Shown here: positions 10,613 to 60,108 of the stretch, piece after piece
Numbering within the stretch: position 1 is the first letter of the stretch
Layout of the letters: each line of letters opens with the position of its first letter
From: an uncultured Ignavibacteriales bacterium
Lineage (GTDB): Bacteria > Zixibacteria > MSB-5A5 > GN15 > FEB-12
Direction of reading: 5' to 3'
DNA: 64,000 bases
NCBI GenBank assembly: GCA_964627305.1
Contig: CAZVHP010000005.1
Location: 162,458 to 226,457 of the forward strand
Made by a program: the position numbers and the translations under genes
The notes under the pieces: model-generated
Told to the model about the DNA's origin: nothing
Seen by the model: the letters and a program-made list of their open reading frames with translations, nothing else
The model's database searches: none

Positions 10613-10619
10613 CCTCTGG

Positions 10620-17263: not shown

Positions 17264-17396
17264 ACTGTGTTTGCAAGGCTGAAAGAATACTGCAGTAGCC
17301 CCGACAGGTCCTTTGGCCGACCGCTTTCGGGGTTCGAATGTGCACGGAACTTGTATAATGATGACAACCCACATGAACCATGAAAGGTAGCCTACC

Positions 17397-18221
17397 GTGA
17401 ATCTGTCACGATACCGAATCGCCGTTTGTGTTCTGGTAGCATTACTGGGCGCCGCTTCGATGGCGACGGCGGCACCACGCCTGGATATCGAAGGAGACTC
17501 TTTCGATTTCGGCTTCGTACCGCAGAATTCCAAGATCACGCACTCCTTCTGGCTGAAATCGACAGGCGATGACACGCTGCGGATTGTCCGCGTGGTGCCT
17601 GGGTGAGGGTGCACGCAAGCGCCCTTGCAGAAGGACGCTATCGCTGTCGGTGACAGCGCAGAGCTTGAGATTATTTTCGACACGAGGCAGTACAACCGGA
17701 AGATGTCCAAACGACCGAAGATCATTACCAATATCGGTCCGCCGGACAAGCACGTTGCCATTAGTTGTACGCCGGTGGTGCGACCGGATTCGACATATCC
17801 GATCACCTTCAACCCGTACAAGCTTGATCTGACTCAGTTCGGCGAGAAGGTACGCGAGAATGTTACATTCGATATTACTAACGTCTCCGATCAGAAGGTC
17901 CAGTTCGAAGTCATTGCCACCCGCGATAATCTGTGGGAGATCGAGTTGCCGAAGTCGATTGATCCGGGAAAGACGAAGAAGGCAGTTCTCAAACTCACCA
18001 GGCAGGGTTTGGAGCAATCCTTCGAGAAGTCATTTACCATCCAGGTGAACGATGAGAACAAGAGCCGCTTCACAGTCCCGGTTAAGCGGTCAATCCATAC
18101 TGCTCGTCAGCACCGAGTCGTGACCCCCGCGACGACGACCAACCCGACAAGCGCGACTGGTACTGAGGGAAAAGCCGGCACCGGATCGACACAGAAAGAC
18201 AAGGGCAAAGGCGGCAAGTAG
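17397..18221 (+). CDS. DUF1573 domain protein, paralogue 2, with one in-frame TGA (17604-17606) at the conserved Cys position. Either a candidate selenoprotein or a recent pseudogene.
   Basis: Track ORFs 17397..17606 and 17625..18221 share a frame. The joined product reads ...FDFGFVPQNSKITHSFWLKSTGDDTLRIVRVVPG[TGA]GCTQAPLQKDAIAVGDSAELEIIFD... and is collinear with paralogues 1 and 3. Confidence 0.6.
17607..17658 (+). promoter_or_regulatory. Candidate SECIS-like hairpins downstream of the in-frame TGA
   Basis: GGGUGC-ACGCAA-GCGCCC (17607-17624), or alternatively GCAAG-CGCC-CUUGC (17615-17628), and CGCUGUC-GGU-GACAGCG (17642-17658). Folded by eye only. Confidence 0.3.
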
Positions 18222-18439: not shown

Positions 18440-19909
18440 TTACTCGCCCTCGAACTCGGTGAAACCGCTCCTGAGGAGGTTCTCCCACGCTTGGTTGTAG
18501 ATCTCGCCATAGACGTTGGAGTGTACCAGACGGAAGTCGAAGTTTCCGGACCAGTCTTCGAAAATAAAGTACTTCCCCTCACGCATGCGGTGGTAGTACC
18601 ACACCTGATACGGATTGCCCGCTCGAGGAGCTTGCTTGTCCGTGATTTCATCGTAGAACCCGTAGGTCATCAGTACTCGTCCACGGTCGGTTGACCAGCC
18701 GTTGTCTCTGCCGGGATTGTTAGAGAACATCCTGTTCGCGTATCGCCAGAGCTGGATCGCCGCTATGCGGTTTTCGATCACGGAGGTTGCCGGATCTTCA
18801 TCGTTTTCAATCCAGAACTGCCTCAGGAAGTTCTGCTTTCCTTCGTCATTCAACCCCTTGAGGATTTCTCGCTGCTCCTCGCCTATGGACCAGTAGCTAA
18901 CCTGCACCTTCTGTTCGACACTCAGCGTGTCGTAGGGGTCCAGCACAGCTCCGGGGGTCCTGGCAAACTGCACGAACTGCTGCGATACAATTCGCACCGG
19001 TACCATAACCGTGTCACTCTGCCCACCCTCAAGGTCGCTGGCAACAATGCGAATCCTGTAACCTCCGGACGGCCACGAACTGATATTCAGTGTCTGGGCG
19101 ATTGAGGCATTCTGGCCCGGCACATCCATGACACGACCACCGAAGTTCTGATAAAACACGCCATCATCCCCATAGGCCTCAAAGGAAATGCGCCAGCGTG
19201 TCGTCCGATCCTCGTCATAGTCGAGGTTGTACACTTCGCCGAAGATGTAAGCAATTGAGTCTCTGTCGGCGTAGGTACCCGTGGGATTCGGGATGACAAG
19301 ATAACCATTGCGAAGCAACCTCTGATTAGGCCCGTCGTAACCCGGGCCGGCGTAGCTGATTCTGAAGGCTGTCTGCACACCCGCCAGTTCAAGCCGGTCG
19401 CGCTGAGACGGTTCCACCAGGATTTCGGACAGGAAGTATTCGCCATCACGCTTGGACACGGCATCGATAACAGTCACGCGAGCAGCGTACGTGCCGGGCT
19501 TAACCGTCAGCGCCAGCTTGTCAAAGACCATGTGGTCTTCGATTGCAGCCTCTGCCGAATCACTCACCTTGAGCGAGAAGTACGTGTTTGCCGAATCGAT
19601 GACCCAGCCGTCTTCGTCGTATAGATCGACCTGGGCAAACACTCGTCCGTACCAGGACGAATCGACTGAATCCGGACGGAAGAAATCAAACTGATTCCGA
19701 TTCATTCCGAACGGAAACTCGACCACGGCTACACTGTCATACACGGGGTTGTTATAGACCACAGCTGAGGCGTACACGCCTATCTTGCTTTTCTCCGATG
19801 CTGACACAGCCGAGGCTGCACAAAGCAGAACCAGCATCGACAGCAGAACTGAAGGCCTGAGTCTTGAAAGGATAGCCTTGTAGGTCGCATTGAGTATCAG
19901 CTTCTTCAT
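18440..19909 (-). CDS. GWxTD domain-containing secreted protein
   Basis: The C-terminal region GRDNGWSTDRGRVLMTYGFYDEI...NPYQVWYYH matches the GWxTD domain pattern. The start is set at MKKLILNA (ATG 19907-19909) with a signal peptide, because the longer track ORF overlaps the upstream gene. Confidence 0.75.
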   Translation of the reverse strand: MKKLILNATYKAILSRLRPSVLLSMLVLLCAASAVSASEKSKIGVYASAVVYNNPVYDSVAVVEFPFGMNRNQFDFFRPDSVDSSWYGRVFAQVDLYDEDGWVIDSANTYFSLKVSDSAEAAIEDHMVFDKLALTVKPGTYAARVTVIDAVSKRDGEYFLSEILVEPSQRDRLELAGVQTAFRISYAGPGYDGPNQRLLRNGYLVIPNPTGTYADRDSIAYIFGEVYNLDYDEDRTTRWRISFEAYGDDGVFYQNFGGRVMDVPGQNASIAQTLNISSWPSGGYRIRIVASDLEGGQSDTVMVPVRIVSQQFVQFARTPGAVLDPYDTLSVEQKVQVSYWSIGEEQREILKGLNDEGKQNFLRQFWIENDEDPATSVIENRIAAIQLWRYANRMFSNNPGRDNGWSTDRGRVLMTYGFYDEITDKQAPRAGNPYQVWYYHRMREGKYFIFEDWSGNFDFRLVHSNVYGEIYNQAWENLLRSGFTEFEGE

Positions 19910-19925
19910 TGTTCCCTTCCAGTAA

Positions 19926-21266
19926 TCAAAAATCCGGACGTTGCCCCCGACCGTCATAGGGGTACTGCAGACGGTAGTCGCCATCAAGATTGAGATCGAC
20001 AAAGGTGAATTTGCGATAGATGCCGTCGCGGTAATAGTGCCACTCCTGATACGGCACACTCGACAGCGAATAAGGGTAGTCATCGATCTCATCAGGCTCA
20101 CCGTGGCTGATGTAGATGCGTCCCCTGTCGGTCTTCCATCCCTCGCGGGTCATATGTCCGAAGCTCTCGTTGGCAACTCGCACGCGCCGGTAGAACTCGG
20201 TCTTGATCTCATTGGTGGTACTTCCGGGCGTCGGGTCAAGCTTGTTCCAGAACTCGTTGAACGCGGTCCGTCGTTCTTCGACAGTCTCAGCCTTCTTGAG
20301 TTCGTCTACTTCCTTGCGACTGGCAATGTATGAGATCTGCTCCACCAGCGTCTCATAGTCCTGATCCATGAGGCTTTCGACGGACCAGTAAACAGCGAAC
20401 TCTGCTCGCTGCCTGTCAAGCGTTCGGAGTCGACGGCCGAGCAATGACACCTCCAGTTCGTATTCTCCCGGGTCGAAGCCATCAACCGTGATGTTGCGCA
20501 GTTGCCGAGTAATCGGCTCGGTCAATTCGGTATGGAGCGAGTCTCGGTAGACCATGGAGCGGTTCTTCTTGCGTATCAGGGTCTCGACAACGACACTTTC
20601 GATGTCGGAGCTTCCGCGATAGATTTCGACATAGAACAACAGGGGATTGTCACCATCGCCCCCATAGCCATGATTCAAAGAAGGGACGACTACCATATTG
20701 CCCTTGTGAAATGCGCTGTGCTCGGCCTGCGTGGAATCCCAGGAACCAACGGCCTGGACCATCTCTATATCTGAAAGTCGGGGCGGCTTATCCCACCGCG
20801 GTGTCAAATCAACCTCGAAGTCGTGAGTATGAGTCGGCCCGCCATCGAGACTGCGGAGGGTTGCCCTGATCTTGTACCTCCCGGGCTGCAGAAGGAAGTT
20901 TGCCTGGTCAGTGCGATAGTCGAGGGCCGAGCGACCGGCGTCGGCCACCCGCACCGTTCCCTCCTTGGTGTATACATCGCCGGGCTGACCGCTTCTGCCC
21001 TGAACGTCTATCCTGACGTAGTAACGAGCCTGATCTACCCTGTCCTGCTTCTTGAACTTCAGCGCGTTGTTGAAGAACTGGAAATACACTTCAAGCCGAA
21101 CGAGCGAAGAATCCAGCGTGGAGAACTGCGCCCAGTCGACCAGAAACTTGGCGTTGTTGTCCGGTGTCTTCGTGACGATGCGCCCGGCCTGCGCCGACGT
21201 TCCCGCCAATCCCACGACCAGTAACGTCACCAACACCAATCTGAGTAGAGTATTCTTCATAGACAT
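19926..21266 (-). CDS. GWxTD domain-containing secreted protein
   Basis: Signal peptide (LVLVTLLVVGLAGTSAQA) and C-terminal REGWKTDRGRIYISHGEPDEIDDYP...VPYQEWHYY. Confidence 0.78.
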   Translation of the reverse strand: MSMKNTLLRLVLVTLLVVGLAGTSAQAGRIVTKTPDNNAKFLVDWAQFSTLDSSLVRLEVYFQFFNNALKFKKQDRVDQARYYVRIDVQGRSGQPGDVYTKEGTVRVADAGRSALDYRTDQANFLLQPGRYKIRATLRSLDGGPTHTHDFEVDLTPRWDKPPRLSDIEMVQAVGSWDSTQAEHSAFHKGNMVVVPSLNHGYGGDGDNPLLFYVEIYRGSSDIESVVVETLIRKKNRSMVYRDSLHTELTEPITRQLRNITVDGFDPGEYELEVSLLGRRLRTLDRQRAEFAVYWSVESLMDQDYETLVEQISYIASRKEVDELKKAETVEERRTAFNEFWNKLDPTPGSTTNEIKTEFYRRVRVANESFGHMTREGWKTDRGRIYISHGEPDEIDDYPYSLSSVPYQEWHYYRDGIYRKFTFVDLNLDGDYRLQYPYDGRGQRPDF

Positions 21267-30617: not shown

Positions 30618-31997
30618 CTATTGGGACAAGCGAGTAACCTCAACCACAATGGATGGGAAGCCGTACAGGGGGTCGTTCGATCGCGACCAGTTGGTCATGT
30701 AGTAATTCTGGACAACCAGCCCCCCCTCCTTGTACTGGAGCTGGGAACGATACTGCGGCAGCGAACCGGCCAGTAGTATCAAGGGGAAGTTGGCATCCGA
30801 ATCGAAATTGATCGGCTCCAGCGTAATCATGGCGGAACCGCGAGAGACACCGTCCACCAAGACCAACTGGGCAGGAGAGCATGGAGTGTTGAAGAAATCC
30901 ATGCCCGGATACGGCGGAACACGGTCGCTCATCGAATAGGAGTTGTCATCATCGGGACCGTCGATTATGTCAAAGAATCCGGTGCTGATCAGTCGCCCCG
31001 AACTGGCACCGGGGATCCAGCTATTCTGGCCAACATCCACCGGCCATCCCGGAAAATTCATAGCAGCACCGCAGTTCTCAGGGATAGCATCCGACACGGC
31101 CCATCCGCGATAACGCCACCCGAAGTCGGCAGAGTAGTCGATGAAGAGCGTATCCAAAAGCAGATACTCACCATAGACAGTAATGGTGGAGTCGCTGGCA
31201 ACGGTGTATACGAGATCGAAGGTTCTATTGTAGATAAACGGAGGAGAGGTAGCGACCTTCACTTCGGCATCATAGCGCACGACGGTCCGAGGTACGGTAT
31301 CCCAGAAACCGAAAACAGTATCCACAATCTCGGTTCTGATGTTGTAAATCGACTCGACATACGTGGTGAATGTCGTATCCCCGACAAAGGTATCCAATAC
31401 CAGAGTCCAGCTGGACAGGGCCAGCGTATCGCGAACAACACCGCGCCTCTCTCGGTAGCTCGTGAACCATAGGCCGGAGCCGTCGTTCTCGTCGCGGTTG
31501 CCATCGGAAGGCGTTTCAAGATTGAACATGGCCGTATTGAACCATAGTGAATCAGATAAGGGGAAACGCAGCTTGATGGGGTTTTCATAGAACGTAGTAA
31601 CGGTATCCCATAGCATGACCGGGCCGGGGCCGATCGAAGGAACATCCGTCTGCTCGACACTCACCAGCATCACTTCGTAGTTGAGCACATCCTCCTCAAG
31701 AAGGAACCTGCCCCCATCGGCGCGATCGGAGCCGTCCGCGTTGAGGAACACCCGTCGGTCGAAGTCATAGCCGAACCGGCCCAACGACACAGCACTGACA
31801 GCCCAATTGCTGAAGCTCTCAGCTACCCACAACTCGTAGACCATCCCGTCCGGCAGGGTGGGCAGTCTTTGCGGCTGAAGATTCAGTTCGGTGCTGCTGG
31901 CGGGGACGAAGACATCGTCAGGCTGATCGCACCCCCAGATCAGACCGAGCGACAGTAGTAACAAACAACCGACCAACCACTTAAAACGATTTGGCAT
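30618..31997 (-). CDS. Lipoprotein of unknown function
   Basis: MPNRFKWLVGCLLLLSLGLIWGC is a signal peptide with a lipobox. I recognise no catalytic motif. Confidence 0.5.
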   Translation of the reverse strand: MPNRFKWLVGCLLLLSLGLIWGCDQPDDVFVPASSTELNLQPQRLPTLPDGMVYELWVAESFSNWAVSAVSLGRFGYDFDRRVFLNADGSDRADGGRFLLEEDVLNYEVMLVSVEQTDVPSIGPGPVMLWDTVTTFYENPIKLRFPLSDSLWFNTAMFNLETPSDGNRDENDGSGLWFTSYRERRGVVRDTLALSSWTLVLDTFVGDTTFTTYVESIYNIRTEIVDTVFGFWDTVPRTVVRYDAEVKVATSPPFIYNRTFDLVYTVASDSTITVYGEYLLLDTLFIDYSADFGWRYRGWAVSDAIPENCGAAMNFPGWPVDVGQNSWIPGASSGRLISTGFFDIIDGPDDDNSYSMSDRVPPYPGMDFFNTPCSPAQLVLVDGVSRGSAMITLEPINFDSDANFPLILLAGSLPQYRSQLQYKEGGLVVQNYYMTNWSRSNDPLYGFPSIVVEVTRLSQ

Positions 31998-37429: not shown

Positions 37430-37584
37430 AATCGTCTCCCTTATTGTCTTCCTTGTGACCAGCACCAGGCAACTGCTGTGCCGCACAGGAGAAACACAAC
37501 GACCGCACATGGCCGCTGCGGAGCCCGTCAGAAACTACTGGAAATGATTAGGATGTAACTGCCATCTGCCCGAACACCACCAGG

Positions 37585-38067
37585 TCAGGATGCCAGGTCA
37601 TCAATCCAGGCGTTGACAGAGAAACGATCCAGCAACTCTGCCTGCAGCAACTTGGCGTCGGCTCTGCTGGCAAAACTGCCGATCCGGATACGGTAGTACG
37701 TCTCGCCGCCTACCTGTGCCGTCGTCACAAACGGATCATATCCGCGCTGCCGGTAGAGCTCTATCAACTCACTGGCATAATCCATATCGATGGTGGCCGC
37801 AACCTGAACCGTGAAACCCTCGTCTGCGGGAGCCTGCGGCATCGGTGTTGATGGACGCGGTTCTCTGGGGACGGCCTGGGCGTCGGCCTGCCTTTTAGCC
37901 ACGGTGACAGTGTCGGCTGGGGTTGTTGCTCCAGGCAGTGTATCGCCGGCCTTTCGTTCGAGCAGCTCCATTTCCAGCTTGGCGGCCTCTTCCTTCTTCT
38001 CCTTGGAGCATCCCAATCCCAGCATCATGACGCCAACAGCAAGCAACGTAAGCGCAAACAGCCTCAT
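37585..38067 (-). CDS. SPOR domain lipoprotein
   Basis: Signal peptide with lipobox (MMLGLGCS). The C-terminal FTVQVAATIDMDYASELIELYRQRGYDPFVT...YYRIRIGSFASRADAKLLQAEL is a SPOR fold pattern. Confidence 0.75.
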   Translation of the reverse strand: MRLFALTLLAVGVMMLGLGCSKEKKEEAAKLEMELLERKAGDTLPGATTPADTVTVAKRQADAQAVPREPRPSTPMPQAPADEGFTVQVAATIDMDYASELIELYRQRGYDPFVTTAQVGGETYYRIRIGSFASRADAKLLQAELLDRFSVNAWIDDLAS

Positions 38068-38302
38068 GTCTCCTCCAGCGAGCAGCGACCGGATGCCCCA
38101 GCGCCAGCCCTGTCTAATTGTCCTTCACCGATTCGTCAGCAGAAATGTGTCAGGTCCTTCTAACATTCTGCACCACAACGATATTAACACCCCTCAGGGG
38201 GAGTTGTCAACCTAAAATCCGACTGAGAATTTAGCACGATTTCTTGTTGAATCATGTATAACAAATGAATACTATGCCAAAACCTTGAGAAGACAGACGA
38301 TC

Positions 38303-39292
38303 ATGCGAGCTTACGAAGACATACTGCAACTTGTCGGCCATACCCCCCTGTTGAGGCTGAAGACCGGGATACCAGACCCGGGACCACGGGCATACGTCAA
38401 ACTCGAATTCTTCAACCCAACCGGTTCGATCAAAGACCGGATGACGTTCCACATTCTCAGGAAGGCCCTCGCCGAAGGACACCTGAAGCCGGGCGACACG
38501 GTCATCGACAACACCTCCGGCAATACCGGATCAGCCCTCGCCATGATGGCTTCCGTGATGGGCCTGAAAGCCATCCTGACAACGCCGGAGAAAACCAGCA
38601 AAGAGAAGACGGACCTGATTCACTCCTACGGTGCCGAGGTGATCGTCACGCCCTCCGACCTCCCGCATGAACACCCGGAGGGATGCTTCATGGTGGCCCG
38701 TCGACTGGCCCAAGAGAACGGCTATTTCGACCTGAACCAGTACCACAGCCCGGAGAACATCGAGGCCCACTACGTAAGCACGGGACCCGAGATCTGGGAA
38801 GATACTCGCGGCAGCATTACTCACTTCGTGTGCGGCATTGGTACCGGCGGAACCTTCTCCGGGACTGCCCGTTTCCTGAAAGAGAAGAATCCGCACATCA
38901 GGTGCATCGCGGTCGACCCGGAGGGATCAGTGTTGGCGGACTACATCAAGGATCGACGGGAAGTCGAGGGCCACGCATACAAGGTTGAGGGCATCGGGTC
39001 CGATGTCATCACGCGCGCCCTGTTGCCCGAGCTGGTCGATGAAGTAATCACGGTCTCGGACCGTGACTCCTTTGAACGCGCCCGGCTGGTGGCCCGCAAC
39101 GAGGGCCTTCTCGGCGGCGGGTCATCGGGATCAGTGGCGTTTGCCATGGAACAGGTCGCCCGCAGCGTGAGCGAACGGTCCGTCATTATCGGGATTTTCG
39201 CCGATGCCGGAATCCGCTACCTGAGCAAGTGCTATAATGATGACTGGATGCGGGCGCAGGGATACCTGCCGGCACTGGAACTGGAAAAGTGA
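38303..39292 (+). CDS. PLP-dependent cysteine synthase family protein (CysK/CysM/CBS-like)
   Basis: HTPLLRL...KLEFFNPTGSIKDRM (PLP Lys), SGNTGSALA, GIGTGGTFSG. Start at ATG 38303. Confidence 0.85.
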   Translation: MRAYEDILQLVGHTPLLRLKTGIPDPGPRAYVKLEFFNPTGSIKDRMTFHILRKALAEGHLKPGDTVIDNTSGNTGSALAMMASVMGLKAILTTPEKTSKEKTDLIHSYGAEVIVTPSDLPHEHPEGCFMVARRLAQENGYFDLNQYHSPENIEAHYVSTGPEIWEDTRGSITHFVCGIGTGGTFSGTARFLKEKNPHIRCIAVDPEGSVLADYIKDRREVEGHAYKVEGIGSDVITRALLPELVDEVITVSDRDSFERARLVARNEGLLGGGSSGSVAFAMEQVARSVSERSVIIGIFADAGIRYLSKCYNDDWMRAQGYLPALELEK

Positions 39293-39294
39293 TC

Positions 39295-40011
39295 ATGACA
39301 ACGAACCTGAGTACAACATTCACAATCACTATGGCGCTGATGCTTCTGCTCACCAGTGCCATTCACGCGGCGGGTCAGGAGTATTCACGGGACGACCTGG
39401 TGTTTCAGCCACAGGTATTCGAGTACGGGAGTATCGGTATCGACTACTCCGTTCATCATGACTTTCACCTGATCAACCAAGGCAGGATGCCCGTTAGAAT
39501 TCTGGACACCGAGATTGACTGCGATTGCACTACCCTGCGACTTTCCGACAGCGTCGCGGCACCGGGGGACACCATCGTCCTCAAGACAAAGCTCAAAACG
39601 AGCAATCTCTATGGCCCGACAGGCAAATCTGTTATTGTTGTTACCGATCACCCCCTTCTCGAGCGAATCGAGTATCGGTTTCCGGCCGAGGTTGGTCAGT
39701 GGAGCCAGGGGTTCAAGCCCCTGCCACTCGGTCTGATGTTCCTGCCGGGAGCCAAGCCCCAGGAAGTCCGTATCTGGAACCGGCACTTCCCCAGAGCGAC
39801 AATGGAAATCGCCGATCAATACGACAGCACTTTCACCGTGGAGCTGGTCAAGGCCAGTGTAGCAAAGGGTGAGATGCTGACGCTTAGTGTATCACCGAAC
39901 AAGGACTTGCCACCCGGCACGCACACTTCGAACTTCACTCTCAGCATTGTACGTGAGGGTAAGGAAACGCCCGTCCGTCTGACGATTCCGGTCAAAGCGG
40001 TCAAATACTAA
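39295..40011 (+). CDS. DUF1573 domain protein, paralogue 3
   Basis: Signal peptide, FEYGSIGIDYSVHHDFHLINQGRMPVRILDTEIDCDCTTLRL, and a C-terminal module ending RLTIPVKAVKY. The start overlaps the cysteine-synthase stop (GTGATCATG). Confidence 0.75.
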   Translation: MTTNLSTTFTITMALMLLLTSAIHAAGQEYSRDDLVFQPQVFEYGSIGIDYSVHHDFHLINQGRMPVRILDTEIDCDCTTLRLSDSVAAPGDTIVLKTKLKTSNLYGPTGKSVIVVTDHPLLERIEYRFPAEVGQWSQGFKPLPLGLMFLPGAKPQEVRIWNRHFPRATMEIADQYDSTFTVELVKASVAKGEMLTLSVSPNKDLPPGTHTSNFTLSIVREGKETPVRLTIPVKAVKY

Positions 40012-40159
40012 GCGCTCTCAGCGCTAATCACATTGGAAATCAATGCCGCGAGTGCACTTAGCTGCTGAATTAGTTCCGGGAGAACTCTGTGGGCATGGCA
40101 ATACACAACTACACATTAGAATAGTGTGAGAAAACGACGATATTTTGTTGTAAAACGGC

Positions 40160-40188
40160 TTGACAAGTCCGGTTTGTGCAGCAATATT
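40160..40188 (+). promoter_or_regulatory. Sigma70-like promoter (TTGACA-17 nt-AATATT) in an otherwise gene-less spacer
   Basis: TTGACA at 40160-40165, a 17-nt spacer, then AATATT at 40183-40188. Confidence 0.4.
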
Positions 40189-40194
40189 GAAAAC

Positions 40195-40272
40195 TGACGA
40201 GGGTGACTCTCTGCTGTCCCTGGGTAGTTTCCTAGCCCCCTCTACCCAACCAGAGGAGCGCCCTCTTTTTTT
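40195..40272 (+). ncRNA. Candidate small RNA (about 75-80 nt) between the promoter-like element and a T-tract terminator
   Basis: Internal hairpin GGGTAG-(14 nt)-CTACCC (40222-40247). Terminal hairpin AGAGG-AGCGC-CCTCT (40252-40266) followed by T7. There is no plausible ORF and no plus-strand gene downstream. Confidence 0.35.
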
Positions 40273-40413
40273 ATGCCAGTTTGCCGGGTTAGACCGCACA
40301 GTATACGTATAGACGAGTACGCATTGTGCTTGCAGATGATCACTAACGTGGTGCCGAAACAGTCCTGAGTTGCAGTTGCGGTTACAGCTGCAGCTCAATC
40401 CAACTCACACGGT

Positions 40414-40452
40414 AGAAACAAAACGCCGCCGGAACAACAGCTCCGGCGGCGT
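40414..40452 (-). terminator. Rho-independent terminator of the ferredoxin gene
   Basis: ACGCCGCCGGA-(8 nt)-TCCGGCGGCGT, an 11-bp stem, followed on the minus strand by UUUGUUUCU. Confidence 0.7.
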
Positions 40453-40482
40453 ATACAGCGTTTGTAAACGCTGAATGATCGA

Positions 40483-40668
40483 TCAAGCCTTCTCTATGCA
40501 GTCAACCGGGCAGACCTCAATGCAGTGCGGACCATCATCCTGGTCTTCGCATTCATTGCACGTATCCGGGTTGATGACGTAGATATCACCTTCCTCGATA
40601 GACTCGGTCGGACATTCCGGGAGGCACAGGCCGCAGGCCGTGCACTCGTCGGTGATCTTCATCGCCAT
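40483..40668 (-). CDS. Small 2x[4Fe-4S]-type ferredoxin (YfhL-like)
   Basis: MAMKITDECTACGLCLPECPTESI...NPDTCNECEDQDDGPHCIEVCPVDCI has two Cys clusters. A strong GGAGGA RBS precedes the internal ATG (40666-40668). Confidence 0.85.
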   Translation of the reverse strand: MAMKITDECTACGLCLPECPTESIEEGDIYVINPDTCNECEDQDDGPHCIEVCPVDCIEKA

Positions 40669-41094
40669 GGTGTTATCCTCCAGTTCGAAACGGTTGTCGC
40701 CGCACGCGGATTTTTTCAGGGCGCAATATATAGGATAAACGGGTGAACACAAGGGAATATTTGAAGAAAGTACCTATCAGTCCAAATTCGTAACACACAG
40801 GCGCACTGTGTCTTACAAAAAATTACCTTTACGTAAAGGTGGGCATTGTTACCCATCCGGGACACCATGCCATGCGCGTTGTCTTCGCAACCGTTGAGAC
40901 AGAGTTAACGTGACTCCTGACCGATGTCCCCTGATCGAGGTGCGATCGCATCCAGGCAGAGCTGAGGCTGCGCGAACCACCACACCGCGGTCGCCGTGTC
41001 TGTGCGATGTGTTTCATGCGAACGGCCGCCCGCGATGAGCGGACGGCCGTTGCAAAATGTAAGTGGGAAAACCCACTGATTCGAAGCTACAGGT

Positions 41095-44000: not shown

Positions 44001-44298
44001 CTCCCGCGGGATCGGTCAGTGGTGGCAGCTGCGCCAGCGGCATGATCACATGTGGACCCGGCGGCGTAATATTGAACGTGATGATGTCGTTGCCGGGGTT
44101 GGCGTTGGCAGAGTTGATGGCGTCGCGAAGGCTCCCTGGACCAGCATCGGCCGTGTTTGTCACGACGAAAATGGCACGCGAGTCGGTGGCTTCCTGTCCC
44201 TGACTCTCAGCACTTCTGCTGTCCTGCGACGCGTGAACAAGGCACGTTACCAGCAACAGCAAGGCCCCCAAAGTCACGAGTATGACTTTTGGTCGCAT
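41095..44298 (-). CDS. Large secreted multidomain protein: signal peptide, right-handed parallel beta-helix repeats, PPC (pre-peptidase C-terminal)-like domain, papain-like cysteine-peptidase-like domain, two dockerin-like Ca-binding repeats
   Basis: VVTNTADAGPGSLRDAINSANANPGNDIITFNI plus many NxxxGxxI-type beta-helix turns; EPNDVCHQANP...GWISHPLDEDWWVV (PPC-like); WCGPVSLANCFWW ... GGHYVTSAG (Cys/His dyad-like); C-terminal GNVDYDPLDLINISDMTYLVAFLFSGG...ADVNADMVINISDMTYLVAYLFSGGPAP. Confidence 0.7.
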   Translation of the reverse strand: MRPKVILVTLGALLLLVTCLVHASQDSRSAESQGQEATDSRAIFVVTNTADAGPGSLRDAINSANANPGNDIITFNITPPGPHVIMPLAQLPPLTDPAGVFIDGLSQPGGATAGTNPPSTAVLLIEINGMAAGPAHGLWVVSSNNHIQGLCINNFEQDGICVESGSFEPFIANNIIYCCFVGTDLSGTADMGNGRNQASLWAGIYVGNQPGGTTSQTIIDANLISGNYAEGVHIEGPKVPGDVFDNHVLANYIGTDISGTLGIGNDHEGVCLSEGTHDNHVLDNLICANGYDGIGIQGFDNEPYPAPPIFTYQNMIMGNSIGLDLTGAPLPNMFAGVAVGEYGPSQWGYAIDNRIENNRIAYNIGAGVTVWEHPLDNINADRNTITQNAIFDNGGLGIDLNNDGVTPNDPGDLDTRANEELNFPVIFGAVITSGTTNIGGTIDIDTPPNQATVELFKAALDPTGYGEGAVYLGFATPDAMGNWVFTTAALTAGDSVTATTTDVNGNTSEFSACVAVTTGEEPWDCWENPPPDKVGGGQEMEPNDVCHQANPASCETAYCGWISHPLDEDWWVVTLPEDTCYCLHVRLFGDATPGQYAYGGGLNTYLEIWDATCQTMIYSNDDYNGVFPDAVGTDSQYDCLDPTVNCHLPGTTLNIRVAGSMETVGPYLLVINCYPCECPQPDDTCEYFKQGYLDYCPNGMPDFDQKRGTWWSPFTGNFSWCGPVSLANCFWWFDSKFEPNPVDPRPFYPSPISPPANDGYPLVSSYDPAGIWDDHDTSNVVPFISQLAAACNTDGIVPGTSFADMVMGANNWLTMVGLDQEYTITPVIGPDYYLLRDSILSSQDVILLLGFYELLDEEPMCQWLGGHYVTSAGVCTTSTQICISDPFFDKSEGDPPPGSAHGPTVHDDASLVSGPHGTNWHDIYTAIPAMFPCPTPATWQLVDYPNQWFADGIFTFESQNPLDPIFIPVQYQGGPIIVLIDAALIICPADTGGCCIPPIRGNVDYDPLDLINISDMTYLVAFLFSGGAAPPCFPEADVNADMVINISDMTYLVAYLFSGGPAPLPCP

Positions 44299-44634
44299 TG
44301 CACTCCTCCTGTGTAGATTTGTTTTCTCTCGTCAGCCGTGCGTTTCGGCTGCGAAGTAGTTCATGATACTCGGCTTGTCGCAATCAGATGAGAACCCAGA
44401 GCCGGCCCGCCCGTCTGGGTCAACAGCCAACGGGTACAGTGTTGTGCCGGCATCAATCAACAAGCAGGAAGCAGTAGTCCACAATGAAAAGTCCGTATCC
44501 CTGCATACGTAATATATGCCGCCAACCACAGAGCGTCAAGACAATTGTGGACTCGGGGGGCCGTGTTTTGAAGGTTGCAGAAGAAGTCGGGTTGTTGAAG
44601 CGTTTTGTGAAGAAACCTATGACCTGGGTTGAAA

Positions 44635-44866: not shown

Positions 44867-46798
44867 TTAGCGGCCGCTGGTGCCGCGACTCTGCTGCATC
44901 CTCTGGCGAGCCTTTGCTACCTCGGCTTCAACCAGCGAATCCAGCCGCGGCCAATACCACGGCGCCAGTTGCTTCACCCATGTTTCATGCACAGCCGCCT
45001 TGACGGTATCCGAGAAGAACCTCGCGTATAGATACAGGTCCTTGTGTGCCTCGAAGACCATCGAATCCTGCGCCACCGCCTGATTCATGAGCTCCATAGC
45101 CCGGTCGTGCTGACCCGCCCGCATGTACAGCGACCCCATCTGGTAGAGAAGCTGCTCGTAAGGCTCGCCCTCGACGTATTGACGAGCAGAGGCGAACTCG
45201 CGCAGGGCCTCGGCAGCGGACCCGGCGTTGGAGAGCTCTATGCCGCGCTTATAATGCTGCACGAACTCGACCGGATAGTCCGGCTCCAGGGGACCCGTGA
45301 GGGGCCTGACTTTCTTGTGAGCAACAATCAGACTCCCATCGCCGGGTCGACTCTGCGGATCCGGCTGATAGTACCACCCGACAGAACGGTAGGCCTCGCG
45401 GAACGGCCGATACAGAAGCAGTGCCTGTTCGGCGGGGGCTGACGGTTTGATGTCGGTCGAGAACACGATATAGTCCGGCGCCCTTTGCAACAGATAGCGA
45501 GTGTTGTGGCTGCGTTCTTTCCAGGTGCTGGCCAGTCCCGGAACAGGTGGTTCGGAATGACGCGCAATAGTGGAGTCGGTCAGCCCAACCAGATCGACCA
45601 CGTCATGCCCCACCAAGGTGTAGCCGAAAATGCCGATCGTGGGAATCGCCACAGAAAAGCCGCTGGAGTCTGACTGCTTCAGTTGCGTCGCCATGAATTC
45701 CATCTTGCGGATGAATCCCCGCTCAAGCTCATTGTATTGCAGTACGAAGTCGCGGGGCAACCAGACAGTCAACACAACCAACACCAGACCCACAACGGTG
45801 TACGCTATGAGTCGTACCCGACGCAGCCAATGCGTCGTGATCAGGTGCAACGATACCATGTGAAGAACTGCGTACATGGCCACGAACGGCAGGAAGAACC
45901 GATGAACCTGCAGTACATCTCCCCCAACCAGCACGATATAGGCCGTGTACAGAAAGGTGAACAGCCAGACGACTCGCATTGGCTGACCGAGTCGCTGCCA
46001 GAACAACAGCGGGACTACCAGCCCGGCACCATAGAATCCGTAGTGAGCACAGAAGCGACCCACGTACTCAAGACCACTCTCCAGCTGACCGGCGGAGAAC
46101 CCCGTTTTGGCATAGAACGGATTGGGGAGAATAGAGCCATAGTAGGCCAGCTTGAAGCCGACCATCGGTAGGCTGGCGATTAGCGCGACTGCCGCAGCCG
46201 TAACCGTAAAACGCGGGAAACGGCGACAGATGACCGCCTCACAGACAATCAGCAGCCCGGTGATCAGTGCCCCTTCGGGCCGTAACCAGACCGCCCATGT
46301 CAGGGTCAGCACGAGAAGCCAACTACGCTGCAGGAACAGCAGCAGCGATGCCACTGTCATAAACGCAAATGCCGCCGTCTCCAGGCCGGCAGGCGACCAG
46401 TAGGCGAGCGACATGTTCAATCCCACCAGCAGCGGCACCAGAACCGCGAAGAGCCGTTCTCGTTCGGGAAGCATCCTCAGAGCCATCATCAGCGACAGGA
46501 TCACTATTCCCGCCCCCATCGCAAACCCGAGCAGCTGCGACGCAATAATGTAATCCAGGCCCAGTGACCCGATGAAAACCATCAGGATCACCCAGCCGAA
46601 ATTGGTGAATCCCTCAACCCGCTCACCGACATTGAACACCAGCCCGTCGCCATTGAGGTAGTTGGCAACATAGCGGTAGGAAATGTAGGCGTCATCCTGA
46701 ACGAAATTGAGGGACACCGCCAGATAGACGAACCCGCCTAACGCCAGAAGAACGGCAATCCAATACGGGGCACTCTGTCGTGAGAGACGCAATATCAT
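44867..46798 (-). CDS. Polytopic membrane protein of GT-C glycosyltransferase-like architecture with C-terminal soluble TPR-like domain
   Basis: N-terminal loop motif VQDDAYISYRYVANYLNGDGLVFNVGERVEGFTNFGW followed by more than 10 TM helices. The C-terminal roughly 200 aa are soluble with TPR-like helices (YEQLLYQMGSLYMRAGQHDRAMELMNQAVAQD). The function is inferred from architecture only. Confidence 0.5.
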   Translation of the reverse strand: MILRLSRQSAPYWIAVLLALGGFVYLAVSLNFVQDDAYISYRYVANYLNGDGLVFNVGERVEGFTNFGWVILMVFIGSLGLDYIIASQLLGFAMGAGIVILSLMMALRMLPERERLFAVLVPLLVGLNMSLAYWSPAGLETAAFAFMTVASLLLFLQRSWLLVLTLTWAVWLRPEGALITGLLIVCEAVICRRFPRFTVTAAAVALIASLPMVGFKLAYYGSILPNPFYAKTGFSAGQLESGLEYVGRFCAHYGFYGAGLVVPLLFWQRLGQPMRVVWLFTFLYTAYIVLVGGDVLQVHRFFLPFVAMYAVLHMVSLHLITTHWLRRVRLIAYTVVGLVLVVLTVWLPRDFVLQYNELERGFIRKMEFMATQLKQSDSSGFSVAIPTIGIFGYTLVGHDVVDLVGLTDSTIARHSEPPVPGLASTWKERSHNTRYLLQRAPDYIVFSTDIKPSAPAEQALLLYRPFREAYRSVGWYYQPDPQSRPGDGSLIVAHKKVRPLTGPLEPDYPVEFVQHYKRGIELSNAGSAAEALREFASARQYVEGEPYEQLLYQMGSLYMRAGQHDRAMELMNQAVAQDSMVFEAHKDLYLYARFFSDTVKAAVHETWVKQLAPWYWPRLDSLVEAEVAKARQRMQQSRGTSGR

Positions 46799-49467: not shown

Positions 49468-50739
49468 CTAAAGCGCAATTACCCCCTCGTCGCTCACTTC
49501 TCCCTGATACAGCTGCCGGAGCAGCTCGATATCGTGTTCGGTCAGTTTGACACTGCGCCGGGCACAGGTCCGCTGGGTGGTATCGATTGCCTTGTCAATG
49601 TTATAGCGATCCCACTGCCCCCCGCTTCCCCAGCTGAAAGAAGGGACCTCTTTATCGGCCACAAGGATGCCGCCGAATATGTTGCAGCAGACGCCGATCG
49701 AAATGCCCGTATTCAGCAGTGTCCCTATTCCGAATTTAGTGTGATCCCCGATGAACGAACCGACCTTGATGCTGCCGGTGTCAACAGACTCGCCGCCTAC
49801 TGTGACGCGGATATTCGAGTAGTTGTTCTTCAAATCCGAATTGGTCGTCATGGCCCCGAAATTCACCCAGGAACCTACGTAGCTGTGGCCGATGAAGCCG
49901 GCGTGGTACTTGTTCACAAATGACTCAAACACCGATTCTTCCAGCTCCCCCCCCACTCGGCAGGTGTGCCCAACCGAGCTGGCCGTGATCTTACCGGCCA
50001 GCACAACTGAGTTCGGGCCGATGTAGGTCGGCCCGAAGACTGCAGCATGCGGTTCTATGCGGGTCCCCTTGCCAATGCACACCGGGCCATTGGTGGCATC
50101 AATAACCGCTCCCGGCAACACCTCCACGCGATCTCCCAGAGAGATGAAGCTGGCGTTGACCAGGTGGGCACCATCGTGAACGACAGCCTTGGTGTGACCC
50201 ATTCGCGGCGGATTCAGGAACTTGAAGTCCAGCTCAATCTCTTTCTCAATGTCCGCGACGACTTCCCACAGGCGCTCGTAAAGAGTCGCGCTGGTGTCGC
50301 GCTGTACGATCATCTCGGCGTGCTCCTCGACCGCATTGACAAACGCACCCGGCGTGAACACCGATGGTAAGGATTCCGAGTGCTTTGCATCGAGAAACAA
50401 CGCCACAGACTGATCTCCATTAACGAAGCGTGTGCTGATTCTGGCCTGGTTGATCTGCTCCGGCAGGTCGCCGAAATCCCGAATTCGCCCGTTGAGAAAC
50501 AGAACGCCCCCGTTACCCTTCTTGATTATGTTCACCGGATAGTCTGGATGGGTATGGGCATAGGTGACCGATAGTTGTTCGCGTACTACCAGTGCCATCT
50601 CGGCCTGTGGCCAGTGGCGCTCAATCCGCTTGTAGATCGGGGCGATCCCTGACCTGAGCGAGAACACCGGGCGCATATAGGTCGCAGGAAAGAACTGGCG
50701 AAAACGTTCGTCTTCATACAGACAGATCTGTGGGGTCAT
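49468..50739 (-). CDS. Sugar nucleotidyltransferase-like protein with C-terminal left-handed beta-helix (GlmU/GlgC-like architecture, degenerate N-terminal motif)
   Basis: The C-terminal hexapeptide-repeat region is visible (IGKGTRIEPHAAVFGPTYIGPNSVVLAGKI...VGGELEESVF...IGHSYVGSWVNFGAMTTNSDL). The N-terminus lacks the canonical GGxGxRL loop. Confidence 0.5.
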   Translation of the reverse strand: MTPQICLYEDERFRQFFPATYMRPVFSLRSGIAPIYKRIERHWPQAEMALVVREQLSVTYAHTHPDYPVNIIKKGNGGVLFLNGRIRDFGDLPEQINQARISTRFVNGDQSVALFLDAKHSESLPSVFTPGAFVNAVEEHAEMIVQRDTSATLYERLWEVVADIEKEIELDFKFLNPPRMGHTKAVVHDGAHLVNASFISLGDRVEVLPGAVIDATNGPVCIGKGTRIEPHAAVFGPTYIGPNSVVLAGKITASSVGHTCRVGGELEESVFESFVNKYHAGFIGHSYVGSWVNFGAMTTNSDLKNNYSNIRVTVGGESVDTGSIKVGSFIGDHTKFGIGTLLNTGISIGVCCNIFGGILVADKEVPSFSWGSGGQWDRYNIDKAIDTTQRTCARRSVKLTEHDIELLRQLYQGEVSDEGVIAL

Positions 50740-51055
50740 AGAATAGCCTTATAGCTGTCCAGGCGGGTTACGTGGCCCTCGTCATGTTCTCAATATCGAC
50801 CATAAGCGCTTAGACCTAAACTACTTAATTTATCGGAAACTGATACCACAGAGCAAGTACTTTCGGGCCCTGTAGTGAGTTATTTATCTCACGGGCACGC
50901 GCTACGGCAAACACGGGAATTTGCGGAAACTTTTGTGGCACAAAGTGCTTTGAGATAGAACAAAGACGACTATTTTTGAATCATCTGCCCGTCAAAGGGT
51001 ATCAAAGATGGTAATGGGCAGAATGAAGTAACAAGACAAGTGAGGTGACAACAAA

Positions 51056-51388
51056 GTGTTAGCAGTGTCGAATTCAGCGAGTCAGGAGCTCTCCAAGGTC
51101 CTGGAGCAGGATATGGCCCGGGACAAAGTATTGGTCATCTACTTCCAGGGTTATGGCTGAGGTGGTCCCGTTCTGGGAATGGCTCTGGATGAGTCAAAGG
51201 ACCAACTCGAGGCGCTCGAATCCAACGGCATCACAGCCTATATTGACCCACGACTAAAAGAGCAGCTTGATCAGATGGGCGATATTTTTGTCGACTACCA
51301 AGATCACGGCATCGGCGCCCGCGGCTTCTCAATCCGTGTGGGTCAGGATGGCGACTGTTCTGCCAAGGGCTGTGAAGGTTGCGGCTAA
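51056..51388 (+). CDS. HesB/IscA-like protein with in-frame TGA (51158-51160) at the IscA Cys35-equivalent position; candidate selenoprotein
   Basis: Manual translation from GTG 51056 (GAGGTG RBS 8 nt upstream) gives VLAVSNSASQELSKVLEQDMARDKVLVIYFQGYG[TGA]GGPVLGMALDESKDQLEALESNGITAYIDPRLKEQLDQMGDIFVDYQDHGIGARGFSIRVGQDGDCSAKGCEGCG. The track shows only the 69-aa C-terminal piece (51179..51388). Confidence 0.65.
51168..51182 (+). promoter_or_regulatory. Candidate SECIS-like hairpin after the HesB-like TGA
   Basis: CCGUUC-UGG-GAAUGG, 6 bp including one G-U, beginning 7 nt after the TGA. Folded by eye only. Confidence 0.3.
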
Positions 51389-51418: not shown

Positions 51419-51450
51419 AGGCCCGGAGCCGACTCCGGGCCTGTTTGCTT
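51419..51450 (+). terminator. Rho-independent terminator after the HesB-like gene
   Basis: AGGCCCGGAG-CCGA-CTCCGGGCCT, a 10-bp stem, followed by GTTTGCTT. Confidence 0.65.
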
Positions 51451-51529
51451 CGTCCGATTCGCCTGCCTGATCACCGGCCCAATCCGGCATGATCCTCGCC
51501 GCGCCCGCAGCCCACGGGCAACTTCAGTC

Positions 51530-52255
51530 TCACTGTGTCAGCACCTCCGGCTTTGTCAGCCGGGGGACGGTTTCGATGAGCAGACGGCAGGTCAACTCCG
51601 AGGCGTGTTCCAGAAACAGCACGAACTCCCCGGCTGCACCGCCCTCGGATGAGTCAGAGATAACCCTGACAACCACAAATGGGACACGGTTCATGACGCA
51701 TACCTGACCGACAGCGCCCCCCTCCATCTCCGTGGCAACCGCCCCGAACTCGCGCTGCAGGTACCGAATTCGCCGCGCATCCGCGATAAATGAATCGCCG
51801 GTGGCAATGGTCCCGACCAGGAGCTGTGAGTCCACCTCTCCCCGTTCCTCAAGCCCCTCCCAGGCTTCGCAGACAGTTCTCACCAGTCGGGGATCGGCTT
51901 CAAACATGCGGGTAAGCTCCGGGATTTCGCCGGGGCGCCGACCGAACGCTGTCAGGTCGATATCGTGCTGCACGACGAAGCTGGAAACAACCACATCTCC
52001 CTGACACAGATTCGGAACCAGGGCGCCCGCCAGTCCGGTGAAGACAACCGAGTTGACCCCGAACCGATCAATCAGAATCTGGGTGGCAACCGCGGCGTTG
52101 ACTTTTTCCACGCCGGTGCGAAGCAGGATGGCTTTGCGTTGCTCAAACGTGCCCAGATAGAAGGTGATTCCCGACTGGACGACGGTCTGCTCAATGTCAG
52201 CGTGCTGCAACAGCCGCTGAAGTTCCTCCTCGAGAGCACTAATGAGTCCGATCAT
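51530..52255 (-). CDS. mtnN: 5'-methylthioadenosine/S-adenosylhomocysteine nucleosidase
   Basis: MIGLISALEEE..., GVEKVNAAVATQILIDRFGVNSVVFTGLAGAL, ATGDSF, AVATEMEGGAVGQVC. The start is set at the internal ATG (52253-52255). Confidence 0.85.
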   Translation of the reverse strand: MIGLISALEEELQRLLQHADIEQTVVQSGITFYLGTFEQRKAILLRTGVEKVNAAVATQILIDRFGVNSVVFTGLAGALVPNLCQGDVVVSSFVVQHDIDLTAFGRRPGEIPELTRMFEADPRLVRTVCEAWEGLEERGEVDSQLLVGTIATGDSFIADARRIRYLQREFGAVATEMEGGAVGQVCVMNRVPFVVVRVISDSSEGGAAGEFVLFLEHASELTCRLLIETVPRLTKPEVLTQ

Positions 52256-52314
52256 ATCAATTTCCCCGGAAAGTTGGTTTGTCGATGTATCGGCCATTCT
52301 GCGTGATGGCTCGA

Positions 52315-58920: not shown

Positions 58921-60108
58921 TCAAAACGTCAGCGAGACGCCAGCAGCGGCCGTGACATCTTCGTAGTCATACAAGATGTGGTTGGACGAGTTGCTGGTGT
59001 AGTCAACACTGACACTCAGCCGAAGAATGCTGCCTGCCACTGAACAGGGACGTTCGACACTCACGTAGGTGCGGCGCTGGTTGTCGACGCGTTCAACGAA
59101 CGTCCAGAAGTCTACCATAACCGATCCTCGCTGCTCGGCACGAATCTCCCACGCCGGCAAATACTCCCGGTGCCAGTACCCCGCACCCCAGGTCAGGATG
59201 ATCCGGGGAATCATGAAGGTCTTGATGTTGACGGAGAAGGAGTAGCCCTCCCAGACCGAAGACCACGGCGACACAACATCCGAGTTAATCCCCTGAACGG
59301 TCTTGCTGCCGGATTGGGGTAGCTTCCGCCACGTAACCGTGGCGCTGATCCCGGTTCTGTCACCAAGTGGCCGCGAGAACCGCTTTGACATGTACAGCAG
59401 ACTAAGGGCTTCAGAGTCGTCGGCTTCGGTCGGCGTGAGGAAGCTCGCCTGAACGACACTCGGATCTGACAGTGTATCACCGGTGATACGGTGGACAAAC
59501 AGCCCCGTCATGAAGGTTGCCCTCGTCAGGGAGACACCAAACTCCCCGTCTATGACATTGCGGCCAGGAAGCGTCCAGTTCAGCCCCCCGAACACATCGT
59601 ACTCGCTGCGATCAAGATCATCAGAATTCCCATAGGCCGTCCGGCGCACACTTCCCCCGGCCCTCAGGCGCAGGTTGTCGGCAGGAGCTGTCCCGGCGGT
59701 AACGGTCAGCGCTCCATCGCTGTTGCTGTACTCGTCGAACGCATCCCGATATTCCTGGTGATCAAGGCGGCCTTCCATGACAACCGATACTCCGTCATCG
59801 GACTGGCGTGGAATAAACGACACGGCCACTCCCCCGCGAAAGTTGGACAAGTCCTCAAGTTCCGTCAGACCGCTGTCGAGACCGTAGTAGAACGTATACT
59901 GCCCAGTGAGCGAAATCTCCATAGTGGGCACCGGGTACAACCGGAGCGCCGCGCGCGGGTTGGTGTACCATGCAGCAGCCTCACCGGCGTTCTTCAGCAG
60001 GTTGGAGGTATGGGCCTGATCGAGACCGAATTCCAGTTCGGCTCCGGTTGCTTTGCCCGAGGAGCAGACCAGCAAGGCTACCGAGAGAAGTATTGCGATA
60101 CATCTCAT
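58921..60108 (-). CDS. Outer-membrane beta-barrel-like protein, unknown function
   Basis: Signal peptide (LLVCSSGKATGA), alternating amphipathic beta-strand pattern with frequent aromatic girdle residues, and a C-terminal ...AAGVSLTF ending in Phe. Confidence 0.5.
   Translation of the reverse strand: MRCIAILLSVALLVCSSGKATGAELEFGLDQAHTSNLLKNAGEAAAWYTNPRAALRLYPVPTMEISLTGQYTFYYGLDSGLTELEDLSNFRGGVAVSFIPRQSDDGVSVVMEGRLDHQEYRDAFDEYSNSDGALTVTAGTAPADNLRLRAGGSVRRTAYGNSDDLDRSEYDVFGGLNWTLPGRNVIDGEFGVSLTRATFMTGLFVHRITGDTLSDPSVVQASFLTPTEADDSEALSLLYMSKRFSRPLGDRTGISATVTWRKLPQSGSKTVQGINSDVVSPWSSVWEGYSFSVNIKTFMIPRIILTWGAGYWHREYLPAWEIRAEQRGSVMVDFWTFVERVDNQRRTYVSVERPCSVAGSILRLSVSVDYTSNSSNHILYDYEDVTAAAGVSLTF

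Follow-up and report, generated by a model that had tools for sequence, protein, structure and literature searches.

The HesB-like family (TIGR01911) is listed among the prokaryotic selenoproteomes with the selenocysteine (Sec) motif UxGP, and its function is called unclear (PMC13188914, a 2026 review). Known HesB-like selenoproteins come from Geobacter, Desulfovibrio, Syntrophus, Syntrophobacter, Desulfitobacterium, Symbiobacterium and others. Within the window, the whole 64,000-nucleotide stretch of DNA that was analysed, positions 51056–51388 of the plus strand very probably constitute a single monocistronic gene, which encodes an A-type-carrier-like selenoprotein of 110 residues (IscA/HesB fold), with an in-frame UGA read as Sec by means of a downstream hairpin. 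The predicted protein resembles the known HesB-like selenoproteins in size (about 100–110 aa), in the position of the Sec column, in the motif U-x-G-P followed by x-L-G-M-A-L-D-E, and in a Cys-rich C-terminal tail. As in that family, Sec and Cys forms occur side by side, and the downstream hairpin is also present in L026, a Sec form that scores above the cut-off of the curated model NF038090. The clade to which the window protein belongs differs from the known HesB-like selenoproteins in a signature of its own (SNGITAYIDP, with a C-x2-C-G end) and in its occurrence in Ignavibacteria and Zixibacteria MAGs. That HesB-like proteins constitute a selenoprotein family is already known; what is new here is a mis-annotated branch that the curated models miss.

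The frame across the TGA and its relatives

Read directly from the sequence, the frame is open over 51044–51388, with TGA at 51158–51160 as its sole break. The upstream in-frame stop occupies 51041–51043, the GTG at 51056 is the first start codon after it, and a Shine-Dalgarno-like GAGGTG (51042–51047, plus strand, read from sequence) lies 8 nt before this GTG. The ribosome would start at GTG 51056 and, with Sec inserted as residue 35 at the UGA, would continue to the TAA at 51386–51388, giving a coding sequence of 110 codons plus the stop codon. The read-through product of 110 residues is MLAVSNSASQELSKVLEQDMARDKVLVIYFQGYG-U-GGPVLGMALDESKDQLEALESNGITAYIDPRLKEQLDQMGDIFVDYQDHGIGARGFSIRVGQDGDCSAKGCEGCG, in which the segments VLVIYFQGYG-U-GGPVLGMALDE and, towards the C-terminus, DCSAKGCEGCG can be recognised; the peptide that spans the UGA is VLVIYFQGYG-U-GGPVLGMALDESK, and the proposed Sec codon (U35) lies in the motif G-U-G-G-P. 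The listing of open reading frames holds two pieces instead, one of 34 aa (51056–51160) and one of 69 aa (51179–51388, plus strand), because gene callers treat the UGA as a stop and so split the gene. The 69-aa ORF is an artefact of this treatment; its AUG encodes Met42 in the full-length protein and lies partly within the base of the candidate SECIS hairpin described below.

Downstream of the gene, 31 nt past the stop codon, an intrinsic-terminator-like hairpin with a T-rich tail (AGGCCCGGAG-CCGA-CTCCGGGCCT) extends over 51419–51452 of the plus strand. A terminator scan placed the site at 51419–51442, with 10 pairs (8 of them G-C) and the tail GTTTGCTTCG. The hesB-like gene stands single on the plus strand between minus-strand genes for a sugar-nucleotide enzyme (NTP_transf_4, 49468–50739) and a nucleosidase (PNP_UDP_1, 51530–52297), and no isc, suf or nif operon surrounds it. 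An earlier note on this DNA had described the frame with its GTG start, GAGGTG ribosome-binding site, single TGA and upstream stop at 51041–51043, and had assigned the gene a terminator of its own; all of these coordinates hold, and the terminator was recovered by the scan with its T-rich tail.

A protein search yielded only ten relatives, of which seven were calls of 64–72 aa, two were full-length proteins with Cys (P0005, with GQGCAGP, and P0006, with GASCSGP, each Cys falling at the TGA column), and one carried Trp. The DNA upstream of each short call contains a conserved in-frame N-terminal segment of 34 codons that ends in TGA at the same column. In a scan of one genome per species, 38 loci were found, divided into 14 TGA forms (from Ignavibacteria, Zixibacteria, two unclassified MAGs and a Bacteriovoracaceae/"delta proteobacterium" pair) and 24 Cys forms (from Syntrophales, Smithella and other Desulfobacterota). 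The locus closest to that of the window came from an Ignavibacteriales MAG and was 85% identical. Altogether 17 distinct sequences, taken from independent assemblies, have TGA at this codon, a recurrence well outside what chance would give, and 26 Cys forms, P0005 and P0006 among them, have TGC or TGT there; the partner of the TGA column in these 26 relatives is Cys, and never Trp or Gly. The relatives share the start column, with M-L-x-V/I-S/T, in all cases. Four independent metagenome assemblies of near-identical loci contain the same TGA, which excludes a sequencing error.

Between the window and the locus L014 most codon differences were synonymous, before the TGA as well as after it (upstream, 13 synonymous and 4 non-synonymous; downstream, 26 synonymous and 10 non-synonymous), and the same pattern in close pairs marks purifying selection on both halves. 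The 33 codons before the TGA thus change in the manner of coding sequence, which means that the N-terminal stretch of 34 codons is translated in this frame. Such a pattern bears directly on the possibility of a pseudogene or nonsense allele, in which the TGC or TGT of a Cys-type hesB/iscA gene would have become TGA and the decaying gene would yield nothing or fragments. Gene callers do see two small ORFs here, and the Sec machinery is not visible in the 64 kb window, as a decaying gene would allow, but the TGA is kept in 17 distinct sequences from several phyla, both halves show purifying selection and, across the relatives, neither has acquired another stop or a frameshift, and the downstream hairpin is conserved specifically together with the TGA. 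Protein identities of 51–85% and differing gene neighbourhoods argue against a mobile sequence that spread recently among the relatives, and decay of this kind is regarded as extremely improbable.

A split HesB, made up of two small proteins (34 aa up to the UGA and 69 aa from AUG 51179) that act together, would agree with the calls of a 64–72 aa ORF by JGI, ENA and NCBI alike and with the conservation of ATG 51179 as Met in most relatives. That Met, however, belongs to the family motif GMALD and is also found in the undivided Cys forms, which are single chains; the Sec form L024 has Leu (TTG) in its place; and no Shine-Dalgarno sequence is evident before 51179. The cut would also fall at the ligand residue itself, between two neighbouring strands of the IscA fold, and a split protein appears very unlikely compared with one continuous selenoprotein.

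A candidate SECIS hairpin downstream of the UGA

For the UGA to be read as Sec, the mRNA hairpin UGGCUC-UGGAU-GAGUCA (51180–51196, plus strand) would recruit a SelB-type elongation factor carrying Sec-tRNA(Sec). This candidate bacterial SECIS core, delineated by comparison of relatives, consists of a 6-bp stem (UGGCUC/GAGUCA) and the apical loop UGGAU (51186–51190); it opens with the UG of the AUG that was mis-called as a start, and 25 nt (51161–51185) separate the UGA from the loop. The published bSECIS model (bSECISearch) describes a loop of 3–9 nt, an upper stem of 4–16 bp, a G at one or both of loop positions 1 and 2, a UGA-loop spacing of 16–37 nt, and a free energy of −7.5 kcal/mol or lower. 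The window hairpin falls within these ranges for loop (5 nt), stem (6 bp), G (at position 2, followed by another G) and spacing (25 nt). Its free energy alone is −6.5 kcal/mol (17 nt) or −7.3 kcal/mol (19 nt), and becomes −14.1 to −17.1 kcal/mol with a lower stem that is specific to the window, so that its standing against the −7.5 threshold varies with the length of sequence taken.

The pairing of this hairpin follows the identity of the codon at the TGA column. Among the distinct Sec forms (n = 17), all six pairs are present in 15 and five of six in the remaining 2, compared with at least five pairs in 6 of the 26 Cys forms (Fisher p about 2e-7, kinship ignored). The two Cys forms closest to the window keep 2 of 6 pairs, and in three other Cys forms (L028, L033 and L051) all six are still present. 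One pair (27–35) has changed from U-A to C-G, a compensatory replacement seen in L012b and L017 (two sequences, possibly one event), and another (25–37) has changed from G-U to A-U in three sequences. RNAalifold recovered the same hairpin unaided, with a consensus energy of −10.5 kcal/mol.

Freezing of synonymous sites is limited to codons +8 to +12, those of the hairpin. Here Leu is CTG in 17/17 sequences, Glu is GAG in 15/15, Ser is TCA in 15/17 and Ala is GCT in 12/14, compared with three to six codons in use for equally conserved residues outside the hairpin. Wherever the paired Ala codon is GCC, E46 is replaced by G. The peptide GMALDES is itself conserved, and part of the nucleotide conservation is protein-driven. 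The locus offers, through comparison of relatives, a clear case in which a SECIS hairpin would constrain both synonymous sites and the choice of amino acid (E46 to G with GCC), while leaving knowledge of Sec decoding itself unchanged.

The minimum-free-energy fold of 51158–51205 (−14.1 kcal/mol) includes the lower stem, in which GGUCCC (51163–51168) pairs with GGACC(A) (51199–51204) and encloses the hairpin (51163–51204, plus strand); the lower stem was looked for in the folds of the relatives and was absent from them. Compared with shuffled sequences the region showed no extra stability (z = −0.64 and +0.35), so that the case for a SECIS rests on comparative data and not on thermodynamics. 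A small conserved helix of 3 bp in the RNAalifold consensus, with CCC (51167–51169) opposite GGG (51175–51177) on the plus strand, was followed by pair counts; it is made by Pro and Gly codons, occurs in Cys forms too, and is probably a by-product of the peptide motif GPxLG.

The earlier note had pointed to a different hairpin, CCGUUC-UGG-GAAUGG (51168–51182, −4.0 kcal/mol), and had suggested a search for a SECIS near the UGA. The hairpin it named occurs in the window, but relatives do not keep it (over the 17 Sec forms 59% of cells are paired, no more than the mean of shuffled sequences), and it was rejected as the SECIS; the conserved SECIS-like hairpin, at 51180–51196, lies 12 nt further downstream. 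Like the bacterial SECIS of the E. coli fdhF type, the window element is located within the coding sequence, immediately 3' of the UGA, and has a 6-bp stem and a small apical loop bearing G, whereas it has no sequence similarity to the fdhF element. Unlike the bacterial SECIS model, its conserved part amounts to a 17-nt hairpin only, with an unconserved lower stem and, for the hairpin alone, a free energy of −6.5 to −7.3 kcal/mol, marginally above the −7.5 threshold. In an Rfam search of the whole window four tRNAs alone reached the gathering score and the locus had no match, a result that is neutral with regard to a bacterial SECIS.

Family membership and ligand positions

The joined translation, searched with U replaced by C, matched the NCBIfam model NF038090 (IscA_HesB_Se; E = 2.3e-16, residues 1–97) and TIGR01911 (HesB_rel_seleno; E = 4.1e-12), and more weakly the general models of A-type carriers (TIGR00049; ErpA; Pfam PF01521, E = 3.6e-4), while the 69-aa piece searched alone matched no family. 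That the family matches span the TGA supports reading the 69-aa ORF as the C-terminal part of a 110-residue HesB/IscA-like protein, as the earlier note had suggested from the layout of the frame. Its proposal of a HesB/IscA search with U replaced by C was partly rewarded, in that the E values are significant and the scores remain below every curated threshold: 59.9 bits for NF038090 (cut-off 85), 46.6 bits for TIGR01911 (cut-off 66.35) and 21.2 bits for Pfam PF01521 Fe-S_biosyn (gathering score 26.3). The whole window clade, including the Cys forms P0005 and P0006, scores 54–60 bits with NF038090 and 32–47 bits with TIGR01911, compared with 100–126 bits for deltaproteobacterial relatives above the NF038090 cut-off (L026, Sec, 108; L028, Cys, 126; L047, Cys, 100). 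The window clade is clearly homologous to the known HesB-like selenoproteins; these scores, with the Sec column, motif and hairpin that it shares with L026, mark it as a sister branch beyond the boundaries of the curated models.

Because the Ignavibacteria/Zixibacteria-type branch scores under their cut-offs, TIGR01911 and NF038090 fail to rescue the gene, and the position of the branch outside the model boundaries explains why only fragments are on record: in JGI, ENA and GenBank this gene and those of the relatives appear solely as pieces of 64–72 aa or as "hypothetical proteins". A selenoproteome survey based on the curated models would undercount the branch, which escapes them in its entirety.

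The motif of the window protein, G-Y-G-[TGA]-G-G-P (U-G-G-P), fits the published Sec motif UxGP of HesB-like proteins. The statement in the earlier note that HesB-like proteins belong to the surveyed selenoprotein families agrees with their listing under that motif (PMC13188914), and the comparison with known members that it called for showed U-G-G-P to be an instance of UxGP and both the LGMALDES motif and the hairpin to be common to the window and L026.

A profile of the clade searched against the PDB matched the IscA-like protein Aq_1857 (1nwb; E = 2.5e-11) and HI1723 (2apn; E = 2.1e-9), and in both the U column aligns on the Cys of GGCSG, the first ligand Cys of A-type carriers (Cys35 in E. 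coli IscA). An AF2 model of the Cys form P0006, used as a proxy (52% identical; pLDDT 79), retrieved 2apn, 1r94, 1x0g, 1s98 and 2d2a in Foldseek with a probability of 1.00; of these, 1r94, 1s98 and 1x0g are IscA (1x0g with a [2Fe-2S] cluster), 2d2a SufA and 2apn HI1723. The C-terminal tail of the P0006 model has a pLDDT below 50. Within the clade the invariant C-terminal cysteines are C106 and C109 (CEGC, C-x-x-C), and some relatives have C-S-C. The window protein is comparable to IscA, SufA and ErpA in fold (from the clade profile against the PDB and from Foldseek by way of P0006), in the first ligand position and in the possession of a C-terminal Cys pair. It differs from them in having Sec rather than Cys at ligand 1, in a C-terminus of CEGC with an extra upstream Cys where A-type carriers have C-G-C, in its PF01521 score below the gathering threshold, and in the location of its gene outside isc, suf or nif operons. 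The IscA-like layout drawn in the earlier note accordingly stands for the U column, which falls on the ligand Cys, and not for a C-terminal C-G-C, the place of which is taken by CxxC (C106, C109). Its placement of the UGA at the first cluster-ligand Cys, probably as Sec, is borne out by TGC or TGT in the Cys forms, by TGA in at least three lineages, by the PDB alignment and by UxGP.

Sec35 would thus take the position occupied in IscA, SufA and ErpA by the first Cys that ligates the cluster or iron, and by analogy with these carriers Sec35 and C106-x-x-C109 most likely form a site for binding a metal or an Fe-S cluster, or else a redox-active selenol/thiol site. Between these, a role like that of an Fe-S or iron carrier is preferred on the basis of fold and ligand positions only; whether as Fe-S or as redox chemistry, the activity is what we infer for the protein from its likeness to A-type carriers. 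A more speculative and rather doubtful extension is that the Ignavibacteria/Zixibacteria-type proteins constitute a distinct subfamily of Sec-containing A-type carriers, in which the selenolate and CxxC would ligate iron or Fe-S and the hairpin would dictate the GMALDES sequence. If true, selenium would serve as a natural ligand in an Fe-S carrier, and lineages unmentioned in PMC13188914 and PMC9312934 (for Zixibacteria, in PMC13188914) would be added to those with the Sec trait.

Probable Sec decoding in this organism

Searches for the decoding machinery were confined to the window and to related loci. No tRNA-Sec was found in the 64 kb window (ARAGORN), and no SelA, SelB or SelD among its 40 large ORFs (Pfam); tRNA scans at 22 related loci likewise found no tRNA-Sec, although these are short stretches and uninformative. 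Two selenoproteome reviews (PMC13188914, PMC9312934) make no mention of Ignavibacteria, and the first makes none of Zixibacteria, which is weak evidence; a wider full-text literature search for Sec use in either lineage returned nothing relevant. The Sec trait of this genome, the insertion of Sec and the binding of SelB are accordingly predicted from sequence comparison.

The alternative that a standard tRNA (Trp, Cys or Gly) reads the UGA, by near-cognate suppression or through a change of code in the lineage, would give a full-length protein free of selenium. It draws on the Sec machinery of the genome not being in evidence in the 64 kb searched, on one ENA record in which the relative P0004 is translated with Trp at this codon, and on the capacity, in principle, of a hairpin to stimulate generic read-through. 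The P0004 translation, however, also crosses a true stop (CEGCG*YN*) and is an artefact of code 4, and in 26 relatives the residue opposite the codon is Cys, in no case Trp or Gly. As an ordinary stop TGA is used more than any other codon in the window, at the end of 23 of its 47 large ORFs, by which a global reassignment of TGA is ruled out. In a recognised selenoprotein family, with the motif UxGP (PMC13188914), Sec is annotated at this very column, the hairpin fits the SelB-type bSECIS model, and a second gene of a known Sec type lies within the window. Decoding by a standard tRNA is on these grounds considered improbable, and Sec at the UGA remains the preferred reading.

The second gene with an in-frame TGA encodes a DUF1573 protein (frame 17391–18221, TGA at 17604–17606) with the motif PG-U-GCT; its Pfam match spans the TGA (E = 1.9e-25), and in a paralogue the residue aligned with it is Cys. 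Among the listed selenoprotein families is DUF1573, with UGC as its motif. With two genes of recognised families that each have TGA at the Sec position of the family, Sec decoding is the economical reading for this genome, a trait suggested by these two TGA genes at the level of sequence. Together with the DUF1573 UGC gene, the hesB-like gene indicates the use of Sec by this uncultured organism. Other frames of the window that are split by TGA (10223–10792, 44200–44616, 19752–20305, 37552–38163 and 40024–40773) were set aside, with translations that resemble non-coding sequence or TGA codons that resemble ordinary stops.

Sec and Cys forms of the HesB-like gene

Both forms of the HesB-like subfamily occur in tandem on a short metagenome contig (L012, 162-497 and 679-918), where the Sec form (TGA) lies 180 nt downstream of the Cys form (TGT). 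The SECIS-like hairpin is present in the Sec copy, with a compensatory C-G pair, and in the Cys copy only 2 of its 6 pairs are kept. Three other Cys forms, from Syntrophaceae, Syntrophus and Desulfobacteraceae MAGs (L028, L033 and L051), still possess all 6 of the 6 pairs after their TGC/TGT codon, and these hairpins may be fossil SECIS elements, remnants of Sec-to-Cys conversion. For the HesB-like protein of Desulfitobacterium hafniense, a published figure legend describes a SECIS-like structure drawn with the Cys codon marked (PMC1794560). The ENA record of one relative's protein (P0004, from loci L011 / L022) renders the TGA as Trp and also passes the gene's real TGA stop (...CEGCGWYN), evidently a genetic-code-4 call applied to a code-11 organism.

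In several Zixibacteria MAGs, a tRNA-His was found within ~200 nt after the HesB-like Sec gene (L015, 3503-3578; L017, 1532-1606; L024, 3468-3543), with a histidyl-tRNA synthetase occurring there instead in one of them (L008, 3941-4379). The histidyl-tRNA synthetase of the window (13440-14894) is 36 kb from the HesB-like Sec gene.

A DUF1573 gene with an in-frame TGA

A second candidate selenoprotein gene in the window encodes a DUF1573 protein (17391-18221, + strand), with an in-frame TGA (17604-17606) that sits in the motif VVPG-U-GCTQAP and is spanned by the Pfam DUF1573 match (E 1.9e-25). ORF lists give only 17625-18221 of this gene, compared to the full frame of 17391-18221. The TGA aligns to the first Cys of the CDCT motif in a DUF1573 paralogue (39289-40011), and a Cys-type DUF1573 gene (16547-17263) is located directly upstream. 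Listed selenoprotein families include DUF1573, with the motif UGC. The gene carries an 8-bp hairpin (GAGGGUGC-ACGCAA-GCGCCCUU) that begins within the UGA itself; its loop-to-UGA distance is shorter than the published bacterial SECIS consensus (bSECIS) model permits.

Other ORFs in the window

Two adjacent ORFs with GWxTD domains (18440-20101 and 19926-21266, both - strand) have a listed overlap of 176 nt, which is probably not genuine but the result of placing the start of the downstream ORF (GTG 20101) too far upstream; the TGA ending the upstream ORF (19926-21266) looks like an ordinary stop. Three large ORFs on the - strand, of 643 aa (44867-46798), 459 aa (30618-31997) and 395 aa (58921-60108), matched no family at E ≤ 1e-5 in a Pfam scan. 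Dockerin, PKD and PEP-CTERM, as well as a 1067-aa secreted protein, are encoded nearby, suggesting that these ORFs lie in a neighbourhood of cell-surface genes.
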